Source: an uncultured Candidatus Saccharibacteria bacterium
Lineage (GTDB): Bacteria > Patescibacteriota > Minisyncoccia > 2-02-FULL-40-12 > GWA2-44-9
Reading direction: 5' to 3'
NCBI GenBank assembly: GCA_964491455.1
Contig: CAZBFM010000001.1
Coordinates: 564,903 to 628,902, forward strand
DNA length: 64,000 nt
Of this stretch, positions 4,142 through 64,000 are shown in pieces (the first letter of the stretch is position 1; each line of letters begins with the position of its first letter). Made by a program: the position numbers and the translations under genes. The notes under the pieces were generated by a model, which saw only the letters and a list, made by a program, of their open reading frames with translations, was not told the origin of the DNA and made no database searches.

Positions 4142-4213
4142 GCTCTTGTCGTTCAATGGATAGGACGCTAGCTTGCGGAGCTAGCAATGTAGGTTCGATT
4201 CCTACCGAGAGCA
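4142..4213 (+). tRNA. tRNA-Arg (anticodon GCG)
   Basis: Hand-folded cloverleaf: acceptor GCTCTTG/CGAGAGC, anticodon stem CTAGC/GCTAG with loop TTGCGGA, and T-arm GTAGG-TTCGATT-CCTAC. The D-loop AATGGATA resembles the two other Arg tRNAs here. CCA is not encoded. Confidence 0.6.
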
Positions 4214-4216
4214 CAA

Positions 4217-7020: not shown

Positions 7021-7092
7021 GCCCCCGTAGCTCAACGGATAGAGCAGACCCGTCCTAAGGGTACGATGGAGGTTCGATTCCTTTCGGGGGCA
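7021..7092 (+). tRNA. tRNA-Arg (anticodon CCT)
   Basis: Acceptor GCCCCCG/CGGGGGC, anticodon loop GTCCTAA, T-loop TTCGATT. No CCA. Confidence 0.75.
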
Positions 7093-7101
7093 CACATCAG
7101 C

Positions 7102-12781: not shown

Positions 12782-12788
12782 TCGTTTC

Positions 12789-18153: not shown

Positions 18154-18155
18154 AT

Positions 18156-20846: not shown

Positions 20847-20849
20847 TTC

Positions 20850-21679: not shown

Positions 21680-22307
21680 AACCTCTACAACCGATCTCAT
21701 TCAAATTCAGGAATTGCGTGATGGGGTGCTTATCCTTAAAGACGGGTCGTTACGCGCCGTGGTCAAGATATCGGCAATCAATTTTGAGCTTCGCTCAAGC
21801 GATGAACAGCAAGCAATCCTGCAGCAGTTTGGGGCGTTTATGAATTCCATTGATTTTCCAATACAAATGGTTGCTCATTCTCGTCGATTCGATATTACTA
21901 CCTACCTCGCTAATCTTGAATCGGCTACGCAAGGTCTCACCAACGACCTCCTGAAGGTGCAGTCGGGGGAGTATGCAAGATTTGTTCGCGAATTGTCAGA
22001 GCTCGCCAATATCATGCAAAAGAATTTCTACGTCGTACTCCCTATGGAGGTCACAGCAACATCCGAAAGTACGGGATTCTTTGGAGGCATCAAGGAGATG
22101 TTTAAGAAAACACAAAGAGCACAATCGCTCTCGTCAGACCAGCTCGCCCTGTTTCGCTCTCAGCTCCAGCAACGCGCTGACCTGATATTAGGAAGCGTCT
22201 CTGGTATGGGCCTGAAGGGCTCTATGCTTGAGCAGGAAGAGCTCGTAGCTCTGTTCAATGATGTCTACAACCCCGTTGTACCCGCCGCACCTCAACCTAA
22301 CGCGTAA
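21669..22307 (+). CDS. virB4: VirB4/TrbE N-terminal domain fragment (ends at in-frame TAA 22305-22307)
   Basis: IQIQELRDGVLILKDGSLRAVVKISAINFEL..QQAILQQFGAFMNSIDFPIQM matches the VirB4/CagE N-terminal domain. It is in the same frame as the following ATPase ORF. Confidence 0.6.
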   Translation: MATETSTTDLIQIQELRDGVLILKDGSLRAVVKISAINFELRSSDEQQAILQQFGAFMNSIDFPIQMVAHSRRFDITTYLANLESATQGLTNDLLKVQSGEYARFVRELSELANIMQKNFYVVLPMEVTATSESTGFFGGIKEMFKKTQRAQSLSSDQLALFRSQLQQRADLILGSVSGMGLKGSMLEQEELVALFNDVYNPVVPAAPQPNA

Positions 22308-22310
22308 CCT

Positions 22311-24056: not shown

Positions 24057-24061
24057 CACCA

Positions 24062-25063: not shown

Positions 25064-26201
25064 TTTTATGTCACCTTCGCCTCACTCTCTTCGCACTCTT
25101 CAAGTGAGCACCTTTGTCGTACTGGCAAGTTGCGTCGCGCTAGGATCTGCTCTCATAGGTAAGAACGGAGAGACCACAGATTTAACCGCTTCCATCGCTG
25201 ACGCCACCTCACCCTCAACGCCCACTACCTCAATCGAACCACCACGCGAGCGAACTCCAAAAGTAGTAAGTGAAAACACTGTTCTCTCGTCTGCGGTTGA
25301 CCAAGGTCGAGATTCAATACGATTCTTTGAGAAAGATACTGGCAAGTCATTTCGAGTTGATGTATCAAATCTCACAACCTCAATTATCTCCGCGGATAAG
25401 ATTATCGGTTTTCAAAGGGGAGCGTGGGTGCCACTCGCACAAGGCGCTCTTATCTTTGCTCGTGAGCCGTCTGGCGTTCGTGTAAAATACCTTCGCTTCA
25501 GTAATCAATCATCAATCACACTCGATAGTTCGTTTGTAGATGCAGCGGTTTCCCCAGATGGGCAGCGTGGGGCTTTCATTCAGGAAAACAACAATGATTC
25601 GCGCACGATCCTTACCGCAGCTCTTGATGGATCAAATCCGAGAGAATACCTCGTGACCCGCGCATCGGATATGCGTCTGTATTGGAAATCAAATGATGCG
25701 CTTTCATTTACCTCACGAAGATCGGACCATGCAGGCTATGACCTTACAATTGTTGACTCCGCACATATCTTGAGACAACTACTGACGAACAAGGAGAATC
25801 TTGAATTGTCTTGGTCGCCCGATGGGAAGCGTCTTTTGTACTCGTATTTTAGCCCAACTGATGGAGTTTCGTTGTGGATCTGGGATGAGAACACCGCAAT
25901 GAGCGCGCCACTTCTCGTACCGACGAGTGCACAGAAATGTGCATGGACTCCACAGGGGGATTCTATTGTCTGTGGTATTCCCGCAAAAAACACTCTCACT
26001 CGCGATATACCTGCCGATAAAACGGCAACGATAGATAATATCGAAGTCATCGACCCCACAACGAATGCGCGACGTCGTATATACACGGGCGTCCCTGGTC
26101 GTCTATTTGGAGTAACAAAACCGCTCGTAACAACGAGCGGGGAATACTTCGTTTTCACGAATATGTTTGACGCTCGGCTCTATGTAGTGCCACTACAATA
26201 A
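25044..26201 (+). CDS. secreted protein, TolB/WD40-like beta-propeller (putative)
   Basis: Signal peptide and repeated ...DG.R..Y....DG.S.W.W... blades (SPDGQRGAFIQ, SPDGKRLLYSY). Confidence 0.45.
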   Translation: MKRRQLNFMSPSPHSLRTLQVSTFVVLASCVALGSALIGKNGETTDLTASIADATSPSTPTTSIEPPRERTPKVVSENTVLSSAVDQGRDSIRFFEKDTGKSFRVDVSNLTTSIISADKIIGFQRGAWVPLAQGALIFAREPSGVRVKYLRFSNQSSITLDSSFVDAAVSPDGQRGAFIQENNNDSRTILTAALDGSNPREYLVTRASDMRLYWKSNDALSFTSRRSDHAGYDLTIVDSAHILRQLLTNKENLELSWSPDGKRLLYSYFSPTDGVSLWIWDENTAMSAPLLVPTSAQKCAWTPQGDSIVCGIPAKNTLTRDIPADKTATIDNIEVIDPTTNARRRIYTGVPGRLFGVTKPLVTTSGEYFVFTNMFDARLYVVPLQ

Positions 26202-26202: not shown

Positions 26203-26661
26203 CTACGCAGACGGCTTAATAACGACACGCCGGAGCGGATCTTGTCCTACGCTTTCGGTGGAAAGATCACTATAGGAAGCAAGCTCAGTGTGCACAACAC
26301 GACGCTGATAGGATGTCATTGGCTCGAGAGCTTCGGAGCGCTTTGTCTGCTGAACACGCACGGCCGTCGCATGGACTATATCGATGAGTTGTTGTGTCTG
26401 TTCGGCGCGATAGTTATTGACATCAACGGTCACCGCTCGCTGATCAAGCTCATTACGAACTGCCACCATCCGTACGATATGCTCTAATGCTTTGAGGTTT
26501 TGCCCGTTCTTTCCGATAAGCAACCTTCCGTCCTCGGCAACGCTCAGCGCAACACGTACCGCTCCATTCTCAGCGGTAACCGACAGCTCGCAGGGGATTT
26601 GCATGCACGATGTTACGTGGCGAACAAATTCTTCGATTTTTTGTGTCGAGCTTGAGCTCAT
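26203..26661 (-). CDS. jag: Jag/KhpB RNA-binding protein (KH + R3H)
   Basis: KH-like LLIGKNGQNLKALEHI and R3H YQRRVVHTELA motifs. Lies 3' of yidC as in the canonical operon. Confidence 0.8.
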   Translation of the reverse strand: MSSSSTQKIEEFVRHVTSCMQIPCELSVTAENGAVRVALSVAEDGRLLIGKNGQNLKALEHIVRMVAVRNELDQRAVTVDVNNYRAEQTQQLIDIVHATAVRVQQTKRSEALEPMTSYQRRVVHTELASYSDLSTESVGQDPLRRVVIKPSA

Positions 26662-26675
26662 GTGGCAAGTATGCC

Positions 26676-27356
26676 TTATGAACGCCGTAAATACAACTGC
26701 TCACCAATTGACCAAAGCGAGGTGGTTACCCAATAGAGAGCGAGTCCCGCTGGCAAGTTCCAGCTAATCACAATAATCATCACCGGGAGCATATACATCA
26801 TCTGCTGACCGATAGCGGCCGTCTGCGGTGAAGAAGATTGACTTGCCATAGCGGTGCGCGCCTGGAAAAACTGGGTCACTCCTGCGAGTATGGCAAGGAT
26901 CGGATTTTTCGCACTAATATCGAGGACACCGAACATCATGTGATTTATCACGCCTGGGTGCGGCATAAATGAATACAGTAGATTGAGTGTCTCCGGTTTA
27001 AATATATTAAGAAACACCTGGTACACACCTATAAGAATAGGTAGCTGCAACAGCAGAGGGACGCAACCAGCTAGGGGATTAACTCCTTTTTCTTTATAGA
27101 GTGCCATCACCGCCTCAGATTGAGCGGTTGTATTTCCTTTATGTGTTTCTTTAAGTTTCTCTATATGCGGGGCTAGCTCCGCCATCGCTTTTTGTGACTT
27201 TGCTGTTTTGATCGAGAGTGGTAGTAGTGCGGCACGCACAACGACGGTCATCGCTATGATCGCAACGCCGAGATCATGAAATCCCAATGTCGAATACAGG
27301 AGAACTGTAAGGTTGAGGATGGGTTGATAAACAAGGGATGTGAATAAAGATTTCAT
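26676..27356 (-). CDS. yidC: membrane protein insertase YidC (short form)
   Basis: Conserved NPLAGCVPLLLQLPIL region and 5 TM helices. Confidence 0.9.
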   Translation of the reverse strand: MKSLFTSLVYQPILNLTVLLYSTLGFHDLGVAIIAMTVVVRAALLPLSIKTAKSQKAMAELAPHIEKLKETHKGNTTAQSEAVMALYKEKGVNPLAGCVPLLLQLPILIGVYQVFLNIFKPETLNLLYSFMPHPGVINHMMFGVLDISAKNPILAILAGVTQFFQARTAMASQSSSPQTAAIGQQMMYMLPVMIIVISWNLPAGLALYWVTTSLWSIGEQLYLRRS

Positions 27357-27586
27357 GTGGAGTGTGTTTGTTGTGCTACAAAAAATGAGTGACAGCCAGC
27401 AAAACGTCGAACCGCTTTCATGGTGCCAATAACAACACCGTGATTTTCAATAACAGAATATGCGTACTCAGAACAGGTTGGCCATGAACAGCATCCCGAA
27501 TACGCCGGCAACAAAAAGGGAGTGGCCACGCCACTTCGCGTAATCGCTTGATACAATCGAATACCCCTCAGGAGGATGTCCTTCAT
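27353..27586 (-). CDS. yidD: membrane protein insertion efficiency factor YidD
   Basis: CxxxPSCSEY signature (CSWPTCSEYA). Confidence 0.85.
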   Translation of the reverse strand: MKDILLRGIRLYQAITRSGVATPFLLPAYSGCCSWPTCSEYAYSVIENHGVVIGTMKAVRRFAGCHSFFVAQQTHST

Positions 27587-27927
27587 GACTGAAGGATACC
27601 AGATTTCTTGAGTAGCAGCATTAGCGTTGCTTCGAGTTCATCCTGAGAGTTCGGCGTACTACGAACAGTAACAAGGAGGGAATAGCCTGTGCGTATTTTA
27701 TGCTGCGCAATGAGGTGTCTCATACATTCTAATACTTTTCGCTTCATCTCGTTTCTCATGTGCGCCTTTGCAATGCCGCTCGACGGCACCACAACAGCAA
27801 CTCTATAGTCTGCGGTAGTAGGCTGAATTCGTAAGGAAAATCCCAGCACATTACTAGGACGCGTGGAAGAAAACAGCGTTGAAATATCTTTTGCCCGCTT
27901 TAGACGATGTCGTTTTGGGAGTGCCAT
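27583..27927 (-). CDS. rnpA: ribonuclease P protein component
   Basis: Basic 114-aa protein (LPKRHRLKRAKD...), positioned between rpmH and yidD. Confidence 0.85.
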   Translation of the reverse strand: MALPKRHRLKRAKDISTLFSSTRPSNVLGFSLRIQPTTADYRVAVVVPSSGIAKAHMRNEMKRKVLECMRHLIAQHKIRTGYSLLVTVRSTPNSQDELEATLMLLLKKSGILQS

Positions 27928-27978
27928 AATGAGATATCCACTCTAACAGCACACCGCCCCTTGTTGGGGCGGTGTTGA

Positions 27979-28116
27979 CTACACAGAAAGACGTGCTCGT
28001 CCCTTTGATCTCCGACGGGCGAGAACCTTCCGACCTGACTTTGTTTCCATACGAGAAAGAAACCCATGTTTGCGGCTCCGTTTCAGTTTCTTTGGGCGAA
28101 AGCGTGTAATTTTCAT
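27979..28116 (-). CDS. rpmH: 50S ribosomal protein L34
   Basis: Hand-translated 45 aa [45 protein letters not shown]. Not in the ORF track because it is under 60 aa. Confidence 0.85.
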
Positions 28117-28325
28117 AGCGTCGTTGTGTGATATGCGCACGTAAGCGCTTCAGTGAGAAGTCTACTATGTTTGATCATGCGAGTCAATATTTACCCGCAG
28201 TTTTCCACCTGTTATAAACACTCTATCAACTTATTGAGGTTTACTGTTCGCTTGAGAGAGTTTCATAGGACTGTATACTGGCGACACATGAGAAGCACGC
28301 GTATGATTTTTCTAATTCGTAATTC

Positions 28326-29708
28326 ATGACCACTGTTGCGCCTGATGACATTTGGAAAACAGTGCTTGGTGAAATGGAACTCTCTCTTTCACGTGCGCAC
28401 TTCACCACGTGGTTCAAAAACACCAATGTGGTCACACGAGATCAAAATTCTGTGACCGTTAGCGTCCCGAATGGATTTGTGAAGGAATGGCTCGAGAGTA
28501 AATATAATCGTCAGATACTCACATCGATTCGAAAGCTCTCAAATGAGATCCGCGAAGTAAAGTATATCGTGGGACAACCAAAACCGGAGCCTCTCCGCCA
28601 AGATATATCGAAGATTATTAGCGAGAAGGAGTTTCAGGAGCAGGTTACCTATGATCAGAGTCAAGACGTTGATAAGGTTACTCATTTAAATAAGAAATAC
28701 TCATTTGATTCCTTTATTGTTGGTGGATCAAATGAATTCACCTTTGCATGTTCTCAAGCTGTTGCTGCAAATCCCGGGAAAAACTATAACCCGCTCTTCG
28801 TGTATGGGGGAGTTGGTCTTGGAAAGACCCACCTCATTCAATCAATTGGCAACCAAGTTCTGCAACAGTGGGGTGACAAGAAAGTCCTCTATACAACAGG
28901 CGAAAAACTCACTGCCACTATTGTTGAATCGATTAAAAATCGGACCGTGGAAGACGTGAAGACACAATACTCGAAACTCGACCTACTCATCATCGATGAT
29001 ATTCAGTATATCGCTGGCAAAGACAAGACACAGGAAATTGTATTCACGATTTTCAATGAACTTCACAATCGGAATAAGCAGGTAGTATGCACTTCTGATC
29101 GACCACCAAAAGCAATCCCAGCAATCACAGAGCGTCTCCAGTCTCGACTCGAAGGGGGGATGCTCGCGGAGATTAATATGCCAGACTACGAGACGCGATT
29201 AGCAATCTTAAAAACAAAGAGCCAAGAGAAAAATTGTCCACTGACCGACGAAGCCCTTTCGTATATTGCTACGCACATCCAAAAGAATGTACGAGAACTC
29301 GAGGGTGCTCTTAATAGAGTTATCGCCATAGCACAGATCTATAATCGAGTTCCTGACGTGAAAGAGATTAAGAACATTCTGAATGCATACCTTGCAGTGC
29401 CATATAGGAAGACGTCCCCGCAAGTAATACTCAAGACAGTCGCGGATTTCTTTACTATTCCTGTAGCAGACCTCACAAAACGTAGTCGCAAGAAAGAAGT
29501 TGTAAAGCCACGGCAAATTGCTATGTACTTACTACGAGAGGAAATAAAACTTTCATTCCCCGAAATCGGCCAGAAACTTGGCGGACGTGATCACTCAACC
29601 GTAATTCACGCGTGCGAGAAGATACGTCGAGAAGAAGGTGTTGATGAGCCACTCAAAAATGAGCTCACCATGATTCGACAGAGGATTTACGATTCGTTTG
29701 AGCACTAA
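28326..29708 (+). CDS. dnaA: chromosomal replication initiator DnaA
   Basis: AAA+ Walker A GGVGLGKTHL and the C-terminal DNA-binding domain (RQIAMYLLRE...GGRDHSTVIHA). Confidence 0.95.
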   Translation: MTTVAPDDIWKTVLGEMELSLSRAHFTTWFKNTNVVTRDQNSVTVSVPNGFVKEWLESKYNRQILTSIRKLSNEIREVKYIVGQPKPEPLRQDISKIISEKEFQEQVTYDQSQDVDKVTHLNKKYSFDSFIVGGSNEFTFACSQAVAANPGKNYNPLFVYGGVGLGKTHLIQSIGNQVLQQWGDKKVLYTTGEKLTATIVESIKNRTVEDVKTQYSKLDLLIIDDIQYIAGKDKTQEIVFTIFNELHNRNKQVVCTSDRPPKAIPAITERLQSRLEGGMLAEINMPDYETRLAILKTKSQEKNCPLTDEALSYIATHIQKNVRELEGALNRVIAIAQIYNRVPDVKEIKNILNAYLAVPYRKTSPQVILKTVADFFTIPVADLTKRSRKKEVVKPRQIAMYLLREEIKLSFPEIGQKLGGRDHSTVIHACEKIRREEGVDEPLKNELTMIRQRIYDSFEH

Positions 29709-29943
29709 TCTAATAACCTGTTGATGAATAGGTCTTATCTCTGTTGATAGAACGCCTTCAATGCTCCATGAAGAGGCGTATCCCTAAAAGAACCCACAGA
29801 TACTCCCCAGCTATCCCAAAGTTATACACACAGCGATTCCATTGATTCGTCAGAGCCTGTCAGGATTTTCTCACTACGTATCCCCATATCCACACCCTTA
29901 GTAGTATGTAGTAGTATTACATTATCTTCTTACTAATTATCCG
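29709..29943. promoter_or_regulatory. putative oriC region (dnaA-dnaN intergenic) with DnaA-box-like 9-mers and an AT-rich stretch
   Basis: TTATACACA (29822-29830) and ATATCCACA (29886-29894) each differ from TTATCCACA at one position. The AT-rich run gtagtattacattatcttcttactaattat follows. Genes to the left run on the minus strand and genes to the right on the plus strand. Confidence 0.5.
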
Positions 29944-31035
29944 ATGAAGATCACCGTACACAAAGAAAGGCTCCAGAGAGTACTTGGATTTGTCGAAAGA
30001 GTGACGTCCCGGAATGCGACGCTTCCTATTCTGAGTAATATTCTTTTGGTGACTGAAAATGGGAGATTACGTGTATCTGCCACAAACCTTGAAGTTGGTG
30101 TTAGTTCACTCATTGGTGCTAAGGTTGAACAAGAGGGGAAGATTGCGGTCCCTGCGAAGACACTATCTGATTTTATTCGGGGTGTTTCAGAGGAGAGTAT
30201 TAGTCTAGAGCTTCGTCAGCAAACACTCTTAGTTCGTGCAGGACGGTACCGAACGACCATCCTATGCTTTGATGCGTCCGAATACCCTATTATTCCTAAA
30301 ATCGATGGGGGCGACGTATTTGAGTTGCCCGTGGAGGACCTCAAACTTCTTATCGAAACCGTTTCTGATTCCATAGCTTCTACTGATTCACGACCTGAAC
30401 TCGCAGGTGCGTTTCTTCGTTTTGATACCAACGGCGTAACAATGGCTGCTACAGATATCTTCCGACTCGCTGAGCACAGTCGCCCTGGTGTGTTCACTCG
30501 TACTGCAACTGCGATCATTCCACGAGGTGCTATTCATGAGCTTGGGCGCATCCTTGGAGGTATCGAGGGTATGCTACAGATACGCCTCGCTGAAAACCAG
30601 GTGTCATTCTCACATGATGAGTTTGAGGTTATCTCAAGGCTTATTGACGGAAAGTATCCTGATTACAAAAAGATTATTCCTGAGCACTCGCTTGCAAGAG
30701 TTCTCGTTCGACGTGATGAGATTGAGAATGCAGCAAAAGTAGCGGCACTCTTTTCTTCAAGTATTTCCGATATCAAGATAGAGTGCTCCAGTGAAGAGAT
30801 TTCAATTAGTGGCAAGAATTCCAGTAAGGGCGAGGCATTCGCTGGAGTGGAATCGAATTTAAAAGGGGAGTCATTTGATGTCTCGATGAATTTTCATTAC
30901 TTCCTCGATGGATTAAAGGTTATTCCTAGTGATAAGGTAGTCATGGAGTATACAGGTAAGGGGAGTCCGTTTGTGCTTCGACCAAACGCGGATGATACAC
31001 ATATTGTGTATTTGATTATGCCCTTAAGGAATTAG
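29944..31035 (+). CDS. dnaN: DNA polymerase III beta sliding clamp
   Basis: 363 aa with the typical N-terminus MKITVHKERL...LPILSNILL. Confidence 0.9.
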   Translation: MKITVHKERLQRVLGFVERVTSRNATLPILSNILLVTENGRLRVSATNLEVGVSSLIGAKVEQEGKIAVPAKTLSDFIRGVSEESISLELRQQTLLVRAGRYRTTILCFDASEYPIIPKIDGGDVFELPVEDLKLLIETVSDSIASTDSRPELAGAFLRFDTNGVTMAATDIFRLAEHSRPGVFTRTATAIIPRGAIHELGRILGGIEGMLQIRLAENQVSFSHDEFEVISRLIDGKYPDYKKIIPEHSLARVLVRRDEIENAAKVAALFSSSISDIKIECSSEEISISGKNSSKGEAFAGVESNLKGESFDVSMNFHYFLDGLKVIPSDKVVMEYTGKGSPFVLRPNADDTHIVYLIMPLRN

Positions 31036-37492: not shown

Positions 37493-39178
37493 TTAACCTA
37501 GCACTCTATGAATCTCCTCGATTGATGTGACTCCATCAATCAACTTTAGGTACCCGTCTTGCACCATCGTGACCATCCCTTCTTTGATTGCCAGGTCACG
37601 AATGTCTGTAACGGATGCCTCGTCTAAAATAAGTCGCTCCATAGCTCTGGTCACTTCAAACACCTCATACACTCCCACACGACCCTTGTAGCCGATTGAA
37701 TTGCACTCTGCGCACCCGCCAGGTCCATACAATGTCACGGTATCGAGCTTTGGAAGAGAGAATCGCTCCGCGATAGGGGAGATCTGTGCTGAGAGTTTTT
37801 GGGAATCTGCCTCCGAGAGTGTGACTGGTTTTTTGCAGTGTTCGCAAAGACGGCGAACGAGTCGTTGACCCATCGCCATTGTGAGCGCTGGGGCGACTGT
37901 GTCCGGCCGAACGCCGATATCAACGAGACGAGGTATGGTGCCAGCGGCGTCGTTAGTGTGAATCGTTGAGAGCACCATGTGACCCGTGAGAGCGGCTTCA
38001 AGGGCGATACTCGCTGTTTCGAGGTCGCGGATTTCACCGATGAGAATAATGTCGGGGTCTTGTCGTACGATTGCGCGTAGCCCTCCCGCGAATGTATAGC
38101 CCTTCGATGGTTCTACTTGGGTTTGGTTGACTCCCTTGATGTGATACTCGATAGGATCTTCCACGGTGATGATCTTCATATCGGGAGTGTTGAGGAAGTT
38201 CAAAAATGCATAGAGTGTCGTGGTTTTTCCAGAACCTGTGGGTCCGGTGGTGAGGAGGGTGCCTTGTGGGCGCGCGAGCAGTTCTTTCACTTTCTCGAGT
38301 ACGTCAGTACGCATGCCAAGGTCTTCAAGTTTTGCTTGAATGCCACGAGGGTCGAGCAAGCGCATCACAATAGACTCACCATATTCACTCGGAAGAACAG
38401 AAACACGAACTTCGATAGCGATGTCACTTTGACGGATGGTGAATCGGCCATCTTGCGGCGCCTTGGTGATGTTGAGCTTCATCTTGGAGAGCACTTTAAC
38501 GCGGCTCAACACGCGCTGATATCGCTCCTTATCAATTGTAGCGACTTCATGGAGAAGACCATCGAGACGATAGCGGAGACGTACAAGGTCTGATTCTGGT
38601 TCGAAGTGAATATCCGACGAGCGAGTCGCGAGTGCGCCAGCGATGAGCATTTCAAATAATTCAGTGACGGGAATATCAGCGAGCTTTGTTTTGATATCGG
38701 TGATAGTCTTGATTGACTGTGATGCTTTTGCAAGCGCGGCGTCATCAACATCAATAGCGCCCACCTCGAATACATCAGCGGTGGTGATGGTCGCGTAGCG
38801 TTGCCAAATCGACTCCATGGTGCGGAGGTCTACGATGAGGATCTTATTGGTGGGATATTGAGTGGTAATACTCGAAATGACCTCTTGCGCCTCTGGTGTG
38901 CGTGGGTCGAGCGCGGCAATTATCGCTGTCGCTGCTTGTACTTGAATGAGCGCAACGCCAGATGCGCGAGATTGGCTTTCTGGTACGTGCTTGAGAGCTG
39001 ATTGGTCTACAAGGAGTGCGTGAGAATCGAGAAAGGGCAAGCCAAGTTCTGTGGCGAGAGCTTGCGCGGTGCGAGTTTGCTCGTGTTCACTGATCTGTGC
39101 GAGCTTCTTATCGAGCTCAGCCGAGGCGTTGTTGGTGGTAGGGGGGACGGTGTTCGTCGACATATCTGAAGCCACCAT
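37493..39178 (-). CDS. pilB: GspE/PilB-family secretion ATPase (type IV pilus assembly ATPase-like)
   Basis: Walker A TGPTGSGKTT, Asp box, Walker B ILIGEIRD, and the C-terminal tetracysteine (CEHC...CAEC). Confidence 0.85.
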   Translation of the reverse strand: MVASDMSTNTVPPTTNNASAELDKKLAQISEHEQTRTAQALATELGLPFLDSHALLVDQSALKHVPESQSRASGVALIQVQAATAIIAALDPRTPEAQEVISSITTQYPTNKILIVDLRTMESIWQRYATITTADVFEVGAIDVDDAALAKASQSIKTITDIKTKLADIPVTELFEMLIAGALATRSSDIHFEPESDLVRLRYRLDGLLHEVATIDKERYQRVLSRVKVLSKMKLNITKAPQDGRFTIRQSDIAIEVRVSVLPSEYGESIVMRLLDPRGIQAKLEDLGMRTDVLEKVKELLARPQGTLLTTGPTGSGKTTTLYAFLNFLNTPDMKIITVEDPIEYHIKGVNQTQVEPSKGYTFAGGLRAIVRQDPDIILIGEIRDLETASIALEAALTGHMVLSTIHTNDAAGTIPRLVDIGVRPDTVAPALTMAMGQRLVRRLCEHCKKPVTLSEADSQKLSAQISPIAERFSLPKLDTVTLYGPGGCAECNSIGYKGRVGVYEVFEVTRAMERLILDEASVTDIRDLAIKEGMVTMVQDGYLKLIDGVTSIEEIHRVLG

Positions 39179-43521: not shown

Positions 43522-43593
43522 GTCCCCGTAGCTCAACGGATAGAGCAGCAGCCTTCGAAGCTGTTGATGGGGGTTCGATTCCCTCCGGGGACA
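43522..43593 (+). tRNA. tRNA-Arg (anticodon TCG)
   Basis: Acceptor GTCCCCG/CGGGGAC, anticodon loop CTTCGAA, D-loop AACGGATA. No CCA. Confidence 0.75.
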
Positions 43594-43615
43594 CACTCCG
43601 GCACGCACATTTCAT

Positions 43616-45843: not shown

Positions 45844-46536
45844 CTATTGTAGCGTATCTAATACTTTTTGTAAAGGCTCTGGAAGGTCGGCTTCTAGGCG
45901 CATAGAAGTGCCTGACGGGGTGGTGAGTTCGAGCTTCCAGGCGTGCAAAAAGGGTCGATCAAGACCGAGGGTCTCTTTGCCAGGGGAGTAGAGCGGGTCG
46001 CCAACGATAGGGGTCCCGATTGCTTTGAGGTGGGCCCGAATTTGATGGGTACGACCCGTGCGAGGCATGCATTCGATGAGCGAATAACCATCGAAGCGAC
46101 GAGTGACTTTGTAGTCGGTAATAGCAGTACGCTCTACGAGGTCTCGAGTCCCGTGTATGTGGGTTGTTGTTTTGGCGCCAACCCGTCCGACGGGCATATC
46201 AATAGTGCCTGAAGCTTCTTTTGGTGTTCCATGTGCTAGTGCAAGGTAGGTTTTACGAATCTTGTGATCGTGAAAAAGGGACTTTAGGTATTCAAAACTC
46301 TTTTGATTTATTGCTAGCAGCATAACCCCTGAAGTGTCGCGGTCGAGACGATGCACTATTCCAGGGCGCAGAGGGTCTTCGCCGACGCCACTCATTTCCG
46401 GCCAGCGCTCAATGGCAAGATCGGCCAGAGTAATCTGGGGGTCATCTTGAGATGTTTTATGCACGGTAAGACCGGGCGGCTTATCGATGGCCACAAAATC
46501 GGAGTCTTCGTAGATGACGGAGAGGTCTAGAGCCAT
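45844..46536 (-). CDS. RluA-family pseudouridine synthase
   Basis: Catalytic motif HRLDRDTSGVMLLA. Confidence 0.85.
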   Translation of the reverse strand: MALDLSVIYEDSDFVAIDKPPGLTVHKTSQDDPQITLADLAIERWPEMSGVGEDPLRPGIVHRLDRDTSGVMLLAINQKSFEYLKSLFHDHKIRKTYLALAHGTPKEASGTIDMPVGRVGAKTTTHIHGTRDLVERTAITDYKVTRRFDGYSLIECMPRTGRTHQIRAHLKAIGTPIVGDPLYSPGKETLGLDRPFLHAWKLELTTPSGTSMRLEADLPEPLQKVLDTLQ

Positions 46537-46973: not shown

Positions 46974-46982
46974 GTTTGAGGG

Positions 46983-47056
46983 TGGGCGCTGAGGGATTCG
47001 AACCCCCGACCTACTCGGTGTAAACGAGTCGCTCTAACCAACTGAGCTAAGCGCCC
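46983..47056 (-). tRNA. tRNA-Val (anticodon TAC)
   Basis: Anticodon loop TTTACAC, A73. Confidence 0.75.
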
Positions 47057-47151: not shown

Positions 47152-47457
47152 CTATTTGAAAGCAGCGAAGTAGCCAGCGATTTCCTTGCGAAAATCAGGA
47201 TGGCACAACTGCAGGATGAGGTCCTCGGGCACGCCTATGTCCAGAGCATCAAACGCGGTGTTGAAAACCACATTTACGCGTTCTTCGATGACCGCGACGT
47301 TGAAGGCGGAGATGTGGCCGTCGACCAGAAGTGCGTACCTCTCCGAGGCCGCTTCGAGCGCGGCTACTGCCTTTTTTTGAGGCTCATTGAGGGATTCAAT
47401 GAGGAGTTGAGCCTGGTACCGATCTGGATTGAGCAATCGAAGAAAGAACCTGCCCAT
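47152..47457 (-). CDS. hypothetical protein (start trimmed to clear tRNA-Ile)
   Basis: Internal Met chosen (MGRFFLRLLNPDRY...). The ORF to 47613 overlaps the tRNA. A plus-strand alternative ORF at 47200..47469 is equally unsupported. Confidence 0.3.
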   Translation of the reverse strand: MGRFFLRLLNPDRYQAQLLIESLNEPQKKAVAALEAASERYALLVDGHISAFNVAVIEERVNVVFNTAFDALDIGVPEDLILQLCHPDFRKEIAGYFAAFK

Positions 47458-47579
47458 ACGATCGAGTAGCTTCACGAGACCTCCTTGGTAAATGACTAAA
47501 AATATAATAACAGCAAATATTATATGAGTCAAATCACGCACACAAGTCCGACACCGGGGAGGTATCGGACTTGTTATGG

Positions 47580-47653
47580 TGGGCCCGCCTGGACTCGAAC
47601 CAGGGACATCCAAGGTATAAGCTTGGCGCTCTAACCAGCTGAGCTACGGGCCC
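47580..47653 (-). tRNA. tRNA-Ile (anticodon TAT)
   Basis: Anticodon stem CCAAG/CTTGG with loop CTTATAC, A73, and standard D and T arms. Confidence 0.65.
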
Positions 47654-47660: not shown

Positions 47661-49517
47661 CTACGCCTTCACGGGAGATGGTTCTCCTATGAGGGCATAG
47701 AATTCATCCTGTTCTATCGTCTCTTTTTCGATGAGATGAGCCGCTATCTTTTTGAGCTGCTCCATCTTACTGGTGATAATACCACGAGCGGTTTCGATTG
47801 CACTCTGCACGAGCGCAAGTACTTCTGCATCGATGAGCTGGGCAACGTGCTCACTATAGTTGCGTTCGTGCATGAGCTCTCGACCCAAAAAGATGGATTC
47901 GTGTGTTTCGCCGTACGAGAGTGGGCCGAGCTTTTCGGACATGCCGTATTGCGTCACCATGCGACGAGCAAGATCAGACGCCACGCGAAGGTCGTTGGAC
48001 GCGCCCGTGGTCAGCTCATTGAAGATGATTTGTTCAGATGCGTAGCCGCTCAACAGCACTGCAAGCTCTGCTTGGAATTCTGATTTGGTTTTGAGGTATT
48101 TATCCTGACTCGGGAGCTTGAGTGTGTAGCCACCTGCGCGACCACGAGAGATAATGCTGACCTTGTGGACGGGGTCTGAGTAGGGGAGTGATGCCGCTAC
48201 AATAGCGTGTCCGGCTTCGTGGTATGCCGTTACTTCTTTTTCCTTTTTGGATAGGACGTGCGAACGACGCTCAGGCCCGAGCATGACCTTCTCGATGGAT
48301 TCAACAAGATTTTCCTGGGAGACATCATCACGGCCTTTGCGTGCCGCTAAGATAGCTGCCTCATTGACGAGGTTGGCGAGGTCGGCACCGGAAAAGCCGG
48401 GTGTTCGCTCTGCAATGACGCGCATATTGATATCGGGAGCCATGGGCTTACCCTTGGAATGAATCGTGAGCACAGCGATGCGGTCTTCGAGGGAGGGCTC
48501 ATCGAGGATGATGCGTCGATCGAAGCGGCCAGGACGCAAGAGCGCTGGATCAAGAATATCGGGGCGGTTGGTCGCTGCCATAATGATGACGGCATCATCG
48601 GTGTCAAAGCCATCCATCTCAACGAGAATTTGGTTGAGTGTTTGCTCACGTTCATCATTGCCGCCACCAATGCCGGCGCCTCGCTGTCGGCCAACGGCAT
48701 CGATTTCATCTACGAATACAATCGCTGGCGCTACGCGCTTGGCCGTCTCGAATGTATCTCGAACGCGATTGGCGCCCACTCCCACAAACATCTCCACAAA
48801 CTCAGAACCGGATACATAGAAGAAGGGTACGCTAGCTTCATTGGCAACCGCTTTTGCGAGGAGTGTCTTTCCGGTACCAGGGGAGCCAACAAGGAGTACG
48901 CCGCGAGGAATGCGAGCGCCAAGACGATGAAACTTCTTTGGGTCTTTGAGGAATTCGACGATTTCAGTTACTTCTTCTTTCGCCTCGATCAAGCCAGCGA
49001 CGTCTTTGAAGGTAATATCCTTGTCGGACGCATTCATGCCGGCGAGCTTGGCGCGGGTTTTCCCAAAGGAGAACGCCTGTGACGATCCTTGTTTTGCCTG
49101 GCGATAGGTGAACCAAAAGAGCCCAACGATAAGGATGATGGGGAGGAGTATGGGGAGGTAATTGGCGAGAAAGACGCCTAGTCCTGTGGGGTCTTTTACT
49201 TCTACTTTCACTGCGGTGAGTTTTTCTTTGACAACGCCAGCGTTGACGAGGGTCTCAAAGATGGAGATTGAAAGTTCTTTTTGAGCGGAAAACTTTGTAT
49301 CGTCCGTTGCGGTGATTGCAATCTGATCTCCGCGCACCGTGATGTCTTTGATGGTGCCCGAGTTTACTTTTGAAACTAATTCACTGATAGCAATGGGTGT
49401 GACGGGTGTGACGGGCTGTGCAAACAACGACGCTGCAAACGCGAGGCTGATGAGGATTGCGAAAACGATGCCAATGGAGCGGATGATTTGTCTCATATGT
49501 GGAGGGTATCCTACCAT
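47661..49517 (-). CDS. ftsH: ATP-dependent zinc metalloprotease FtsH
   Basis: AAA+ Walker [16 protein letters not shown], an SRH region, and the HEAGHA zinc site. Confidence 0.95.
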
Positions 49518-49628
49518 GGAAACGATGCAACGGCAATCGGTTAAAAATTGACAAAATGATAATATATTAGTATGGTAGTGGCGATTTCTAGTCGTTTAAC
49601 AACGAAAAGACGAACGAAGGAGTACGGC

Positions 49629-50900
49629 ATGTCAGACGTCACATTTACATCGTGGGGCAGTGCAAATAGCATTGGCCCGAGTTGTCATGTGCTCAATTTT
49701 GGCGGATATCGTGTCGGTATCGATTACGGAGCTGGTCTGCGTCCGCACGATAGTGAGCCAGCATTCGAAGGCGAGCTGGATGCGCTACTACTGACGCATG
49801 GTCATCGTGATCACGTTGGTATGGTTCCGCGCGCTATCGCTCGCTGGCCCAAGATGTTGTGTTGGGCAACGAAGGAAACGCGCGAGCTTGCGCTTTGGAT
49901 TTGGGAAGATGGGATGAAGATCGAAACCCGTGAACAGCGGGCGCATCTCTTCTCTGCTGATGATATCCAGCGCGCATTCAATCGAACGCAGAAGATGATT
50001 CCCGGAACTCCATTGCGACTCACCAAGGAGCTTACGGTTACCCCGTTTTCCGCGGGGCACATCCTGGGAGCGGTTGGACTAATCTTCTCGTATCGCGGCG
50101 AGCAGTATATCGCGACGGGAGATATCGGCCTGAAGGATCACGGATTCATCTCACGGGCAGTGCTGCCAAAGTTTGAGCGGACACGCCTGCTGATCACCGA
50201 ATCTACGTATGCTGGCATTCGCACCACTAAGTCACGTCAGCAGATTGAGCACGAGTTTCTCAAGGCTGTCTGGTCAGTGATGGATGACGGTGGGCGGGTG
50301 CTTATTCCTACACTGGCAATCGATCGCATGCAGGAGATGTATCAGATTCTCCATGAAGCGGGCATCGATAAGAAGTGGGATTTGTGGGTCGTTGGTGGTG
50401 CCACGCCGACGGAAATCTATCGTCGGTACGCGCCTGATACTAAGCTTCTTACTACAATGCAGCGTTTCCGTGATATGCACCATCAGTTTCGTGTTCAGAA
50501 ATCGGAAAAGCCAGTCATTGTGCTGGCAAGCTCGGGAATGCTCGTCGAAGACACGCCTTCGTATGCGTGGGCGACGACACTGCTCCATGAGCCGGGAAGC
50601 GCGATCTTCATGGTCAACTGGCAGGATCCCTGTGAATTCGGAGGAAGGATCCTCGCGACTGGGCAGGGTTGCTTGGTTGAGGCGGCCGATGGCTACATCG
50701 CCAAGCGCTGCCGTGTTGAGCGATTTGATTTCTCGACGCACGCGAAGCAGGATGAGCTCGATGAGATTGTTCGAAGACTCAACCCTGATCGCATCATTCA
50801 CGTGCACGGTGAGAACGAACGCATCGATGAGTTCCTTTCGACGGCGCCCGATGCGTCTCGTCGAATCAAGGCGCTCGTAGGCGTAGAGATCCCCGTCTAA
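49629..50900 (+). CDS. MBL-fold beta-CASP family ribonuclease (RNase J/CPSF-like, putative)
   Basis: HGHRDHVG metallo-beta-lactamase motif and beta-CASP-like motifs downstream. Start at 49629 with SD AAGGAG 6 nt upstream. Confidence 0.7.
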   Translation: MSDVTFTSWGSANSIGPSCHVLNFGGYRVGIDYGAGLRPHDSEPAFEGELDALLLTHGHRDHVGMVPRAIARWPKMLCWATKETRELALWIWEDGMKIETREQRAHLFSADDIQRAFNRTQKMIPGTPLRLTKELTVTPFSAGHILGAVGLIFSYRGEQYIATGDIGLKDHGFISRAVLPKFERTRLLITESTYAGIRTTKSRQQIEHEFLKAVWSVMDDGGRVLIPTLAIDRMQEMYQILHEAGIDKKWDLWVVGGATPTEIYRRYAPDTKLLTTMQRFRDMHHQFRVQKSEKPVIVLASSGMLVEDTPSYAWATTLLHEPGSAIFMVNWQDPCEFGGRILATGQGCLVEAADGYIAKRCRVERFDFSTHAKQDELDEIVRRLNPDRIIHVHGENERIDEFLSTAPDASRRIKALVGVEIPV

Positions 50901-50950: not shown

Positions 50951-52030
50951 TTAGGCGGCGGCTTGCTCGAGTGTCAAGATGAGCTTGTGGTCCTTGGAGT
51001 CGATGTTCACAATGGCGCAGTCATATTCTTTGCCAATCGTGACTACATCGGTTGCAACGCGTCCACCAAATTCTGTCGTTGGAAGAAGTCCAACAATATC
51101 TTCATTGAGCTTCACGAACGCGCCGTTGCTTCGAATCTTGATGACGGTGCCACGTACCTTCTGGCCGACTTTGAAGGCCTCATCAACGGTGAGCCATGGG
51201 TCGGGACGGAGCGCTTTGAGCGAGAGAGCTACGCGACCACCATCGAGACTGATAATTTTTGCTTTAACGCTTTCACCGCTGTGGAGAATCTGACGAGGGT
51301 CTTCGACGAACTTCCAATCGATTTCGCTGGAGTGAATGAGACCATCGAGGTTGTCCGTGAGGCGAACGAATGCACCGAAATCAGTGACTTCTGTGATGAC
51401 ACCTTCAACGGTATCGCCAAGTGCGAGCTTCGTGATTTCGCCTTTCGCCGCTTCCTCTTGGATGGCTCGCTCGGAGACGATGAGCTTATTCTCTTGCTCG
51501 CTGTAATCGAGGATCTTCACCTTGAATGGCTGACCTTTGAATTTTTGGAGAGCCTGTACGATTTTGGTTGTGTCGCCACCCTCTACCTTCGGGTAGTGCT
51601 CGCTGGAGAGCTGGGAGAGCGGTAAGAAGCCTTGGACACCTTCTACTTGAACAATGAGTCCACCTTTGTTGATGTTGCTGATGATGGTGGTCATAACGGT
51701 CCCTGCATCACGAAGTTCTTTGATACGCTGCCAGGAAGTCGTTAATTGAGCGGCTTTGAGTGAAAGCTCACGATAGCCATTCTCGTTTTCGAGCTCTAAG
51801 AGCACAGCAGATACTTCTTCGCCTGGCTTGAGGGCCTTGATTCGATCTGGATTATCATAAAACTGACCTGGGTACACGATACCGATACCTGCTGTCCCCA
51901 AATCGATGGTGACGCTGGATTTTGAAGCGCTAATCACTTTACCTGAGAGGATCTGACCTGCTCGGGGAAGCTGGAATTCCTCTTTTGCGAGAAGATCCTT
52001 CATTGTCTTGCCTGATGCTGATGTTGCCAT
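50951..52030 (-). CDS. rpsA: 30S ribosomal protein S1 (four S1 domains)
   Basis: Repeated S1-domain pattern (G..v.G.V..i...GafV.L.....Gl.h.se). Confidence 0.8.
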   Translation of the reverse strand: MATSASGKTMKDLLAKEEFQLPRAGQILSGKVISASKSSVTIDLGTAGIGIVYPGQFYDNPDRIKALKPGEEVSAVLLELENENGYRELSLKAAQLTTSWQRIKELRDAGTVMTTIISNINKGGLIVQVEGVQGFLPLSQLSSEHYPKVEGGDTTKIVQALQKFKGQPFKVKILDYSEQENKLIVSERAIQEEAAKGEITKLALGDTVEGVITEVTDFGAFVRLTDNLDGLIHSSEIDWKFVEDPRQILHSGESVKAKIISLDGGRVALSLKALRPDPWLTVDEAFKVGQKVRGTVIKIRSNGAFVKLNEDIVGLLPTTEFGGRVATDVVTIGKEYDCAIVNIDSKDHKLILTLEQAAA

Positions 52031-57578: not shown

Positions 57579-58742
57579 ATGAAAGGATTACGCTTACCAT
57601 TACTCTTCATAGCGATTATCGGGTTGGCTCTTGGGCCTACGGTGGTTTCTGCGGCTGATTTTCTTCCTATCGTAAAATGCGGAGCAACAGGGCAGGCGCC
57701 ATGTACGCCGTGCGATATTTTTGGATCGCTCAAGAATATTATCGATTTTATTCTCAAGGGAGTTACAGGTCCGGTCGCTGCGTTTATGATTGTCTATTCT
57801 GGCGGCATGATGCTTCTGGGTGGAGGGAAACCCGAACTCTATAGTGAGGGCAAGAAGATGCTCACGAACACACTTATTGGTGTCACGATCATTCTGCTTG
57901 CGTGGGTAGTGACTAATTTCTTGATTCGCGCACTCATGCCGGGAGTGTCGACGGGCTCGTCTTGGTTTGAGTTTTCGTGTCCTGCGAGCTTATCTGCTAT
58001 CGCACCAATCGACACGACGCTGCCAAGTCCAGTTCCTAGTACAGCGGCTGACGGCTCCACTCCTGCTGCGCCCCCAACCACGAAGCCTTCGTATGCGGGT
58101 ATCTTGTGCCCAATTAGTGACAAGATAAATACATGCAGCACAGACTATGTGTGCCAAGGATGTCCAGAGTATAGAAATGCTGGATATTTTACAAAATATG
58201 GTGCAGACGCGAGAATCCTCGAGGCCATCATGGCAGTGGAGTCCTCCTGCGGAAGCGCGGGGTCGTTGGTGAGTAGTGCGCAAGCTTACGGTATAATGCA
58301 GCTTAAGACAGACACTGCCAATAAGCATGTGCAGCAGTGTCAGATCTATAAGCTGGGGGATGACGGTCAGCCACTACGAAATACAAAAACAGGACAATTT
58401 GTGTATGAGACGATTACTCCTGCGTGGTTGCTAAATAAAAATAACTTCGAAAAAAGTGTTTGCTTGGCAGCGATGGAGGTGCGCGCGGTCAAGGGCATAT
58501 GCAACAATGATATTCGAAATATTGCCGCTGGATATAATTCTGGACCTGGATGGTGCAAGATTAGCAAGGACTGTGCACAAATGCCGAGTTGTGGGGGTGG
58601 TGTGATGCGCGCCTGGGAGTGTCCATGGGATAACGCAACGCACACTGTATGTAACGAAACCCGTGAAGGTGGGGGGCTCATTGAAACGAAGCGGTACGCA
58701 CCGAAGGTCGCGACGCTAGCAACCTGCGCAAATCCAAAATGA
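57579..58742 (+). CDS. fusion of an N-terminal pilin-like two-TM domain (paralog of the 59365-60672 array) with a C-terminal SLT lytic transglycosylase domain
   Basis: N-terminus VYSGGMMLLGGGKPELYSEGKKMLTNTLIGVTIILLAWVV aligns with the four downstream paralogs. C-terminus has EAIMAVESSCGS...YGIMQL (SLT catalytic Glu-Ser and the GxMQ motif). Confidence 0.65.
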   Translation: MKGLRLPLLFIAIIGLALGPTVVSAADFLPIVKCGATGQAPCTPCDIFGSLKNIIDFILKGVTGPVAAFMIVYSGGMMLLGGGKPELYSEGKKMLTNTLIGVTIILLAWVVTNFLIRALMPGVSTGSSWFEFSCPASLSAIAPIDTTLPSPVPSTAADGSTPAAPPTTKPSYAGILCPISDKINTCSTDYVCQGCPEYRNAGYFTKYGADARILEAIMAVESSCGSAGSLVSSAQAYGIMQLKTDTANKHVQQCQIYKLGDDGQPLRNTKTGQFVYETITPAWLLNKNNFEKSVCLAAMEVRAVKGICNNDIRNIAAGYNSGPGWCKISKDCAQMPSCGGGVMRAWECPWDNATHTVCNETREGGGLIETKRYAPKVATLATCANPK

Positions 58743-62067: not shown

Positions 62068-64000
62068 CTAGATGGTCTTCTGCGGCCACGACTGCACCAT
62101 AAGCATATCGTTGCGTGCCTCACCAAAGAGGCGGCCCCAGATATCTTCGGTGACAAACGGTGCGAATGGGTGAATGAGTTTTAGTGTGTTCGTGAGGCAC
62201 CACACGAGAATGTGCTCGGTTGATGATTTGAGCTGTTCATCAGCGAGTTGTGGCTTTGATGCTTCTAGGTAGATGTCAGCAAGCTCTTTCCAGGTGAATT
62301 GGTAGACCTGATTTGCGGCTTCATGGAGCACATGTCGGTCGAGATTGCTGGTGACATCTGCGATAGTTGTCTCGAGTGCGCTCAAGATGGCGCGATCTGC
62401 GTCAGTGGCTGCGGAGGGTTGTGTCGTTGCGTATGACTTGAGCTGCTCGACGGGAACTGAAAGTAATACGAATCGGGTGATGTTCCAGAGTTTATTGGCA
62501 AAATGCTTGTAGGCGCGAACTTTGTCTTCTGAGATTCGACTATCGGTGCCCGGTGTGTTGCCGACGATGAGTGCCATACGTCCCGCGTCGGCGCCAAAGG
62601 TTCGAGCAATATCGATAGGATCGATGCCATTGCCGAGAGACTTGGACATCTTGCGACCTTGGGCATCGCGCACCGTGCCATGAAGATAGACTGTTTTAAA
62701 CGGTATTTGATTGATGGCATAGCCGCTCATCAAGATCATGCGAGCAACCCAAAAGAAAATAATCTCGTAGCCTGTCTCGAGGACATCGGTGGGGTGATAC
62801 AGCTTGAGATCAGGAGTCTCATCAGGCCATCCGAGTGTAGAAAACGTCCAAAGACCTGAGCTGAACCACGTATCAAGCGTGTCGGAGTCTTGTGTCCATC
62901 CATCGCCCGATGGCTCTTCGCCCACAGCGATCTCTTCGTTGCGATACCACACAGGAATGCGGTGGCCATACCAAATCTGACGAGAGATGCACCAGTCGCT
63001 CAGGTTGTCGATCCAGTGGAAGTATGTCTTTCCCCAATGCTCGGGAATGATGCGTATGCGTTCATCTGCGACGGGTTCGCGCATGAGCTCTTTGAGGGTC
63101 TTGTCGCGAGAGGGTATATTTTTGTTGACATCAATAAACCACTGCAGTTTGGGGAGTGGCTCAACGATGCCACCGGTGCGTTCTGCTGTGGCTACATTTT
63201 GCTGGATTGGCTCTGCATTTTCGAGGAGACCCTCTTGAGTAAGCCATGCGACGACCAGTTCGCGCGCCTCGGTGACCTTCTTGTCTTTGAGTGGCCCATC
63301 AACAATGATGCGTGCAAATTCATTGATGACCTGCACAACGGGTAACTGGTGTCGCTGAGCCATCGCCCAGTCAATCATGCTGTGTGCTGGGGTGACACCA
63401 AGTGCGCCCGTGCCAAAGGTGGGGTCCACTTCTTTGTCGGCAATGATTTTGATGTGAAGTGGGGCGCCACAAAAGACAACATCATATTCCTTTCCGATGT
63501 ATTGTTGGTAGCGCTCATCATCGGGATGTACAGCGACGCCTGTGTCGCCAAGTTTTGTTTCTGGTCGAGTGGTCGCAATAGCAATGGGGAAGTCTTTGGA
63601 ATACTTAAATGTCCAGAGAGTTGCGGGGCGCTGTTCGTGCACAACTTCATCGTCGGAGATCGTCGTTTGCCCTTTTGGATCCCAGTTCACAATGCGATTG
63701 CCGCGATAAATAAGGCCATCGTCGTACATGCGCTTGAACATGGTGCGAACAGCGCGATTTCTTGGTTCATCGAGCGTGAATGCTTCTCGGGACCAGTCGC
63801 ATGACGCGCCCATAACTTTCATCTGCGAGGTGATGGTAGCATGGCTTTCTGCGGCAAACGCCTCAACGCGACGCAGAAGCTCCTCTCGTCCCAAGTCGTG
63901 ACGGGATTTGCCTTCTTGTTTGTAGATATCCTTTTCCACGCGAGATTGAGTTGCGATGGCTGCATGGTCGGTTCCCGGTAACCAGAGTGTGCGACGTCCT
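62068..64000 (-). CDS. valS: valyl-tRNA synthetase, 5' end beyond the window
   Basis: KMSKSLGN motif and anticodon-binding domain. The reading frame stays open to the window edge and encodes ...LPGTDHAAIATQ, the class I region after HIGH. Confidence 0.9.
   Translation of the reverse strand, partial: GRRTLWLPGTDHAAIATQSRVEKDIYKQEGKSRHDLGREELLRRVEAFAAESHATITSQMKVMGASCDWSREAFTLDEPRNRAVRTMFKRMYDDGLIYRGNRIVNWDPKGQTTISDDEVVHEQRPATLWTFKYSKDFPIAIATTRPETKLGDTGVAVHPDDERYQQYIGKEYDVVFCGAPLHIKIIADKEVDPTFGTGALGVTPAHSMIDWAMAQRHQLPVVQVINEFARIIVDGPLKDKKVTEARELVVAWLTQEGLLENAEPIQQNVATAERTGGIVEPLPKLQWFIDVNKNIPSRDKTLKELMREPVADERIRIIPEHWGKTYFHWIDNLSDWCISRQIWYGHRIPVWYRNEEIAVGEEPSGDGWTQDSDTLDTWFSSGLWTFSTLGWPDETPDLKLYHPTDVLETGYEIIFFWVARMILMSGYAINQIPFKTVYLHGTVRDAQGRKMSKSLGNGIDPIDIARTFGADAGRMALIVGNTPGTDSRISEDKVRAYKHFANKLWNITRFVLLSVPVEQLKSYATTQPSAATDADRAILSALETTIADVTSNLDRHVLHEAANQVYQFTWKELADIYLEASKPQLADEQLKSSTEHILVWCLTNTLKLIHPFAPFVTEDIWGRLFGEARNDMLMVQSWPQKTI

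Follow-up and report, generated by a model that had tools for sequence, protein, structure and literature searches.

A tRNA-Ile(UAU) gene beside ftsH and a tRNA-Arg(GCG) gene suggest decoding of AUA and CGN codons without lysidine and inosine in a member of the Patescibacteria

Results

The window and its organism

The window, as we call the whole 64-kb stretch of DNA analyzed here, has a GC content of ~50%. It carries the bacterial genes ftsH, gyrA, rplS, valS, dnaA, dnaN, yidC, rnpA, nusA, and tig, in addition to ruvABC-type genes and the gene of a CCA-adding enzyme. Two of its tRNA genes are the subject of this work. One is a tRNA-Ile with the anticodon UAU, located directly downstream of ftsH. 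The other is a tRNA-Arg with the anticodon GCG.

The exact sequence of the window's FtsH protein is not on record. In a scan with one genome per species, this protein shares 99% identity with that of a Candidatus Paceibacterota MAG (locus L001, JAGOPO010000003.1). The closest distinct relative is another Paceibacterota MAG (L002), with 72% identity. The values for Yanofskybacteria and other Patescibacteria are 55-65%. Judging by these matches, the organism is an uncultivated, ultra-small member of the Patescibacteria (CPR), more precisely of the Paceibacterota. A neighbor-joining tree of FtsH groups the window, L001-L005, and L008 in one clade. The remaining loci that bear a tRNA-Ile(UAU) are scattered among other Patescibacteria, with short internal branches.

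The neighborhood of the replication origin is found at 26203-31035. On the minus strand, it has yidC and rnpA preceded by a gene for a jag-like KH/R3H protein; dnaA (28326-29708) and dnaN (29944-31035) come next. The GC skew changes its sign at about 28-32 kb. Surface and secretion genes typical of CPR lie at 148-825, 16537-26201, 37493-39178, and 57579-58742. This set includes a TraG/VirB4-like ATPase, a T4SS-pilin protein with an SLT domain, a T2SSE ATPase, and a sortase. Several large ORFs have no family match, for example one of 896 aa at 18156-20846.

A tRNA-Ile(UAU) gene downstream of ftsH

The genes around the tRNA-Ile(UAU) are the following.

46981..47056, minus strand: tRNA-Val(UAC) (ARAGORN), the conserved downstream partner of tRNA-Ile(UAU)
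47577..47653, minus strand: tRNA-Ile(UAU) (ARAGORN, anticodon tat), with an encoded CCA; the Rfam core is 47580-47653
47661..49517, minus strand: ftsH (Pfam Peptidase_M41, AAA, and FtsH_ext), with promoter-like sites at 49590-49556 on the same strand
49572-50900, plus strand: beta-CASP nuclease gene, which occupies the interval between S1 and ftsH; there is no gmk-tilS in it
50951..52030, minus strand: S1-domain protein (Pfam), which anchors the frame S1-(gmk-tilS)-ftsH on its upstream side

The original prediction placed at 47580-47653 a tRNA with the anticodon TAT, a normal elongator fold, and A73. ARAGORN and Rfam agree on the tRNA, Rfam with exactly these coordinates, and locate the gene on the minus strand, which the prediction did not state. 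The Rfam model RF00005 gives the tRNA-Ile(UAU) 71.4 bits (E 1e-13 window-wide), with a gathering score of 29. In the covariance-model alignment, its anticodon loop consists of the seven nucleotides CUUAUAC, with U33, the anticodon U34-A35-U36, and A37. Both this tRNA and the tRNA-Arg(GCG) present A73 and a full cloverleaf where no non-canonical pair was flagged. Likewise, both have a score above the gathering value, an anticodon loop of 7 nt, and U33. ARAGORN, run over the window, returned the anticodons tat and gcg for them, as had been claimed.

The tRNA-Ile(UAU) adjoins ftsH in ten further patescibacterial loci (L001-L005, L008, L009, L011, L017, and L020). Nine sequences were aligned. They show compensatory double changes at 14 of the 21 stem pairs, and no pair is broken. 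Neither the loop CUUAUA(A/C) nor A73 varies in this alignment. These compensatory changes span loci whose FtsH proteins are only about 55-72% identical to that of the window. The recurrence beside ftsH in ten loci, together with the covariation, means that the tRNA-Ile(UAU) is not a chance match. By these sequence comparisons, it is confirmed as a genuine, conserved, and functional-looking gene.

Only 7 nt separate the ftsH stop codon from the tRNA-Ile(UAU) in the window. The gap in the ten other loci measures between 9 nt and ~1.9 kb, and the tRNA of L004 is on the strand opposite to ftsH. The promoter scan of the window found nothing promoter-like in the interval that separates ftsH from the tRNA. 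A promoter of its own within the 3' end of ftsH was also considered and rejected, as none was found. On the 3' side of the tRNA, a hairpin (read from the sequence) is followed by a promoter-like site. With no promoter in between and with these two elements after the tRNA, the tRNA-Ile(UAU) is probably co-transcribed with ftsH.

The pair formed by tRNA-Ile(UAU) and tRNA-Val(UAC) is also present in L001-L005 and L008, with the order reversed in L004. Between the two tRNAs, the window has an ORF of 108 aa (47152-47478, minus strand) with a strong AAGGAGG ribosome binding site and no family match. The promoter-like site at 47532-47504 belongs with this ORF. Just after the tRNA pair lies a gene for an RluA-family pseudouridine synthase lacking the S4 domain (45844-46536, minus strand), and its counterpart in L002 is at 12248-12937. 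The order ftsH, tRNA-Ile(UAU), rluA-like gene, rplS is kept in L002, L004, L005, L008, and L011. All of these except L011 have the tRNA-Val(UAC) beside the tRNA-Ile.

The tilS slot and the lysidine system

We searched the window for TilS by tblastn, with E. coli TilS and two patescibacterial TilS proteins as queries, and by Pfam and NCBIfam scans of about 60 ORFs. None was found. For a window that covers so little of the genome, this result says little, and the comparison with other loci is more informative. Nine other patescibacterial loci (L016, L018, L019, L154, L155, L156, L158, L160, and L162) have tilS directly upstream of ftsH, usually in the order S1-gmk-tilS-ftsH. The TilS proteins of L016, L018, and L019 reach 167-180 bits on the NCBIfam model TIGR02432 (cut-off 93.6). 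In L156 and L160, the wider frame is gyrA-LactamaseB3-...-S1-gmk-tilS-ftsH. The UAU clade keeps this frame minus gmk-tilS, that is, gyrA-LactamaseB3-S1-ftsH-tRNA-Ile(UAU). In L002, L005, L011, L017, and L020, the S1 and ftsH genes almost abut.

The tRNA-Ile(UAU) and tilS do not coincide. No tRNA-Ile(UAU) is present in the nine TilS loci, and no tilS was found within 10 kb of the 11 UAU loci; 11 further loci have neither. The count refers to the local neighborhood (10 kb), and TilS itself served to select six of the nine TilS loci; TilS turned up otherwise only in L016, L018, and L019. The hypergeometric chance of such a null overlap is ~0.008, by hand arithmetic on the locus counts that ignores kinship. 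We also considered a tilS beside ftsH in L006 and L010, which are devoid of the UAU tRNA. It is not so, and the neighbors there are pilins, DAHP synthase, and the like.

No tRNA(CAU) is present in the window or in the UAU-clade loci. The Ile2 type was found only in two loci that bear TilS, L156 (14756-14828, minus strand) and L158 (9108-9180, minus strand), 1-2 kb downstream of ftsH. The anticodon arm, variable loop, and T arm of these tRNAs are nearly identical to those of E. coli tRNA-Ile2, and a tRNA-Val(GAC) lies beside them in both loci. L046 (Berkelbacteria) has a tRNA(CAU) upstream of ftsH, and its assignment to the Ile2 type is ambiguous. The canonical lysidine pair, TilS and tRNA-Ile2(CAU), is found neither in the window nor in the loci of the UAU clade. 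These gene contents support the replacement of tilS and tRNA-Ile2(CAU) by tRNA-Ile(UAU) in the UAU clade. Considering the 64 kb of the genome at hand and the syntenic slot, tilS has probably been lost from the whole genome.

Searched by tblastn with E. coli IleRS as query, neither the window nor about 150 loci of relatives gave an ileS gene. A class I synthetase lies at 62068-63999; it was considered as a possible IleRS and rejected, as it is ValRS.

tRNA-Arg(GCG) and the CGN box

Three tRNA-Arg genes are present in the window.

4142..4214, plus strand: tRNA-Arg(GCG) (ARAGORN, gcg), 62.2 bits in Rfam at 4142-4213, with G37 and A73
7021..7093, plus strand: tRNA-Arg(CCU) (ARAGORN), a dedicated reader of AGG
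43522..43594, plus strand: tRNA-Arg(UCG) (ARAGORN and Rfam), a reader of CGA and CGG

An Arg tRNA with the anticodon GCG had been proposed at 4142-4213, and ARAGORN and Rfam RF00005 both return it. Its anticodon loop is the heptamer UUGCGGA in the covariance-model alignment, with U33, the anticodon G34-C35-G36, and G37. Its D-loop had been described as matching those of the other Arg tRNAs. This holds up to one base: the tRNA-Arg(GCG) has AAUGGAUA, and both tRNA-Arg(UCG) and tRNA-Arg(CCU) have AACGGAUA. Among the metagenome relatives, the tRNA-Arg(GCG) is identical in L084, and the copy of L086 has compensatory changes in its acceptor stem and its anticodon stem (three sequences only). Its recurrence in two relatives, one of them with compensatory stem changes, means that it is not a chance match.

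The tRNA-Arg(UCG) has tRNA-Lys(CUU) and nifS as conserved neighbors in L002 and L152. The tRNA-Arg(CCU) lies next to the gene of the CCA-adding enzyme in eight metagenome relatives. No tRNA-Arg(ACG) was found in the window or in any scanned locus. The original prediction was that the GCG anticodon would remove the need for the TadA deaminase. It agrees with the joint presence of GCG and UCG in the window, which would cover the four CGN codons without inosine.

For TadA, we used tblastn with E. coli and patescibacterial queries, and Pfam and NCBIfam scans of about 60 ORFs. None was found in the 64-kb window. The relative L002 encodes, inside a tRNA cluster (15426-15956, minus strand), a CDA-fold deaminase of 176 aa with the motifs HAE and PCVMC (PCxxC). 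TadA is its only strong NCBIfam match, with 64 bits on NF008113 (cut-off 150). The family of this deaminase has about 100 proteins with 40-50% identity, all below the cut-off of that model (63-99 bits). P0011, which belongs to this family, shares 43% identity with E. coli TadA. In the window, the syntenic tRNA cluster lacks the deaminase gene. The gene contexts retrieved for the family contained no Arg tRNA with A34 or G34, and no member comes from the species of the window. We would give even odds to tadA being lost or idle in this genome.

Codon use

We counted about 18,000 codons in the ORFs of the window. AUA represents 12% of the Ile codons, or 8.6 per 1000 codons. It is commoner than in E. 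coli, with 4.9 per 1000 (PMC12514573). The Arg codons are distributed as follows.

CGU: 25% of Arg codons
CGC: 34%
CGA: 22%
CGG: 9%
AGA and AGG: 7% and 4%, respectively

CGU and CGC together make up 59% of the Arg codons, and the CGN box, 89%. In alignments to the loci of relatives, the homologous residues under AUA are I, V, L, and F, with Met in 4% of the cases, and all four CGN codons align with Arg. It means that the standard codon meanings hold. With such Ile-like columns and so little Met, a reassignment of AUA was rejected. The claim that the UAU tRNA reads AUA fits with these data, where AUA behaves as an Ile codon in regular use. The window thus combines a genomic TAT tRNA-Ile with AUA kept as Ile.

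The tRNA complement

The 64-kb window contains 16 tRNA genes with 16 different anticodons (ARAGORN; the same 16 by Rfam). Isoacceptors with C34 are present for Ser, Ala, Pro, Arg, and Lys. Val and Leu have pairs with G34 and U34; Ala, with G34 and C34; and Ser, with U34 and C34. A full CCA end is encoded in two of the 16 tRNAs, Ile(UAU) and Lys(CUU).

The gene of the CCA-adding enzyme (~7100-8538) is located amid tRNAs, with Ala(GGC) and Arg(CCU) upstream and Pro(CGG) and Ala(CGC) downstream. This arrangement (6850-10709 of the window) recurs wholly or partly in the 11 closest metagenome relatives (L084-L094). In L100, ARAGORN reports a 91-nt 'tRNA-Pyl(cta)' at 1819-1909. It falls within the coding region matched to the CCA-adding enzyme and is probably spurious.

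The two anticodons had been read as a sign of a reduced modification repertoire, as in some minimal-genome bacteria. One part of this stands. The GCG and UCG pair corresponds to the state of the Pneumoniae-group mycoplasmas after the loss of tadA (PMC3711424). The other part does not, since the tRNA set is expanded, with 16 anticodons in 64 kb. The logic here is more tRNA genes and fewer modifications that expand wobble, rather than an all-round reduction.

Discussion

Decoding of AUA and CGN

Canonical bacteria read AUA with a tRNA-Ile2 whose CAU anticodon is converted by TilS to the lysidine form, and read part of the CGN box with a tRNA-Arg whose ACG anticodon is edited by TadA to ICG. The same codons are served here, and sister Patescibacteria keep the lysidine half of the canonical system in the equivalent neighborhood of ftsH. 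The window, however, has neither TilS, tRNA-Ile2(CAU), TadA, nor tRNA-Arg(ACG), and tilS is missing from its syntenic position. We propose that both genes encode functional elongator tRNAs. Direct reading of AUA would replace TilS and tRNA-Ile2(CAU), and CGN would be read without inosine. From the genes and alignments described above, we give this reading a probability of roughly 0.7.

The mechanism would be as follows. The tRNA-Ile(UAU) would be transcribed together with ftsH and charged by an IleRS that accepts U34. Its U34 would pair directly with the A of AUA, and some means would have to prevent U34 from reading AUG. In the UAU clade, this tRNA would do the job of TilS and tRNA-Ile2(CAU), as kept in sister Patescibacteria. 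In the Arg box, G34 of the tRNA-Arg(GCG) would read CGC by a G-C pair and CGU by G-U wobble. The tRNA-Arg(UCG) would take CGA and CGG. In this way, the whole CGN box would be decoded without the editing of A34 to I34 by TadA.

An alternative is that tilS with tRNA-Ile2(CAU), tadA with tRNA-Arg(ACG), or both, are encoded elsewhere. In that case, the UAU and GCG tRNAs would serve as additional isoacceptors for a higher decoding capacity. The window covers a small fraction of the genome, and its tRNA set is rich rather than economical. L002 encodes a TadA-like deaminase, to which about 100 proteins are related, and tRNA-Ile(UAU) and tilS co-occur in Lactobacillus casei and Cyanothece (PMC3575796). 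However, nine sister loci with this gene frame have tilS at exactly the slot where it is missing here, and it does not lie within 10 kb in any of the 11 UAU loci. Neither an Ile2-type tRNA(CAU) nor a tRNA-Arg(ACG) is found in any locus of the UAU clade, and the site syntenic to the L002 deaminase gene is empty of it in the window. We consider this redundancy unlikely, although it is the alternative with more weight.

The anticodons might also be misleading. The genes may be pseudogenes, or tRNAs gained recently from mobile elements or phages. U34 may also carry heavy modification that alters the decoding, or AUA may have another meaning, such as Met in mitochondria. Nothing positive speaks for this beyond the nearby gene of the RluA-family pseudouridine synthase. 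Against it are the high covariance-model scores, the intact cloverleaves, and the compensatory changes across divergent loci. The syntenic position of the tRNA-Ile(UAU) is fixed, and the alignment columns of AUA and CGN are those expected for Ile and Arg. Such an explanation is very improbable.

Comparison with known systems

The reading of AUA by an unmodified tRNA-Ile2(UAU) without TilS is known in Mycoplasma mobile (Taniguchi et al. 2013, PMC3575796). In this species, it depends on Arg865 of IleRS and on the ribosomal rejection of AUG (PMC3575796). The same was inferred for eight other species, and only nine species without TilS were known in 2013 (PMC3575796). This type is represented by M. 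haemofelis, M. suis, Bifidobacterium, and Neorickettsia, and it was inferred for 'Ca. Spiroplasma holothuricola' (PMC5861454). An IleRS able to charge a U34 tRNA would present a basic residue, such as Arg, at the position equivalent to Trp905 (E. coli numbering) or be of the eukaryote type. The window resembles this system in its genomic TAT tRNA-Ile, in the lack of tilS where it is expected, and in AUA as an Ile codon of moderate usage. Nevertheless, the present case concerns Patescibacteria and is conserved across many divergent genomes, not in isolated species. It also differs in that the tRNA gene is appended to ftsH at its 3' end, probably within one transcription unit.

With respect to the Arg box, the Pneumoniae-group mycoplasmas and M. 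pulmonis have lost tadA, and they carry Arg(GCG) in place of Arg(ACG) beside Arg(UCG) (Yokobori et al. 2013, PMC3711424). A review reports tRNA-Arg(GCG) instead of ACG in Thermotogae and Spirochaetes (PMC8007984). The window shares with the Pneumoniae group the anticodon pair, GCG and UCG, that reads all CGN without inosine. On the other hand, it has a separate Arg(CCU), and a TadA-like gene is present in a relative. Moreover, Mollicutes are AT-rich and poor in CGN, whereas this genome is near 50% GC and uses CGN for most of its Arg codons.

Archaea have G34, and not A34 or I34, in the Arg box, and use triplets of isoacceptors with G34, U34, and C34 for each four-codon box. The window is similar in having G34 for Arg and paired isoacceptors for Ala, Val, Leu, and Ser. 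However, its genes are bacterial (FtsH, DnaA, GyrA, ribosomal protein L19, and sigma-70-type promoters). Most archaea, for their part, read AUA with a CAU anticodon modified to agmatidine, and not with UAU.

A possible lineage-wide change

A broader reading, which we hold only tentatively, is that the whole of a large and deep lineage of Patescibacteria (of the Paceibacteria type, including 'Yanofskybacteria') gave up lysidine and inosine-34, both nearly universal among the wobble modifications of bacteria. It may have adopted rules similar to those of archaea or eukaryotes, with G34, U34, and C34, and with UAU for AUA. As part of this reading, the AUA decoder would have moved from tilS, upstream of ftsH, to a tRNA gene downstream of ftsH. 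In eukaryotes, Pus1 pseudouridylates the UAU anticodon. As pure speculation, the neighboring RluA-family enzyme might do the same here.

The decoding by UAU and the decoding by GCG are both of known kinds. What is new is the lineage-wide and syntenically anchored occurrence. A full-text literature search on lysidine in Patescibacteria or candidate phyla found nothing, and searches on tilS in Parcubacteria and on IleRS2 in CPR gave nothing relevant.

The GCG and UCG set of Arg tRNAs would represent, in a genome that is GC-neutral and rich in CGN, an escape from TadA like that of the mycoplasmas. It would extend a scenario worked out so far for the AT-rich Mollicutes alone. If a whole patescibacterial class uses tRNA-Ile(UAU), TilS would not be a universal bacterial marker or drug target, and the annotation rules for tRNA(CAU) and Ile would need a lineage exception. 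It would also provide a model of how the ribosome and IleRS cope with an unmodified U34 beside the Met codon. The class Paceibacteria has cultured relatives, such as Minisyncoccus (PMC12281837). A lineage-wide loss, if true, would give the largest TilS-free group of bacteria by a wide margin, and would offer a natural test of the proposal that UAU for AUA is the ancestral state (PMC3575796).
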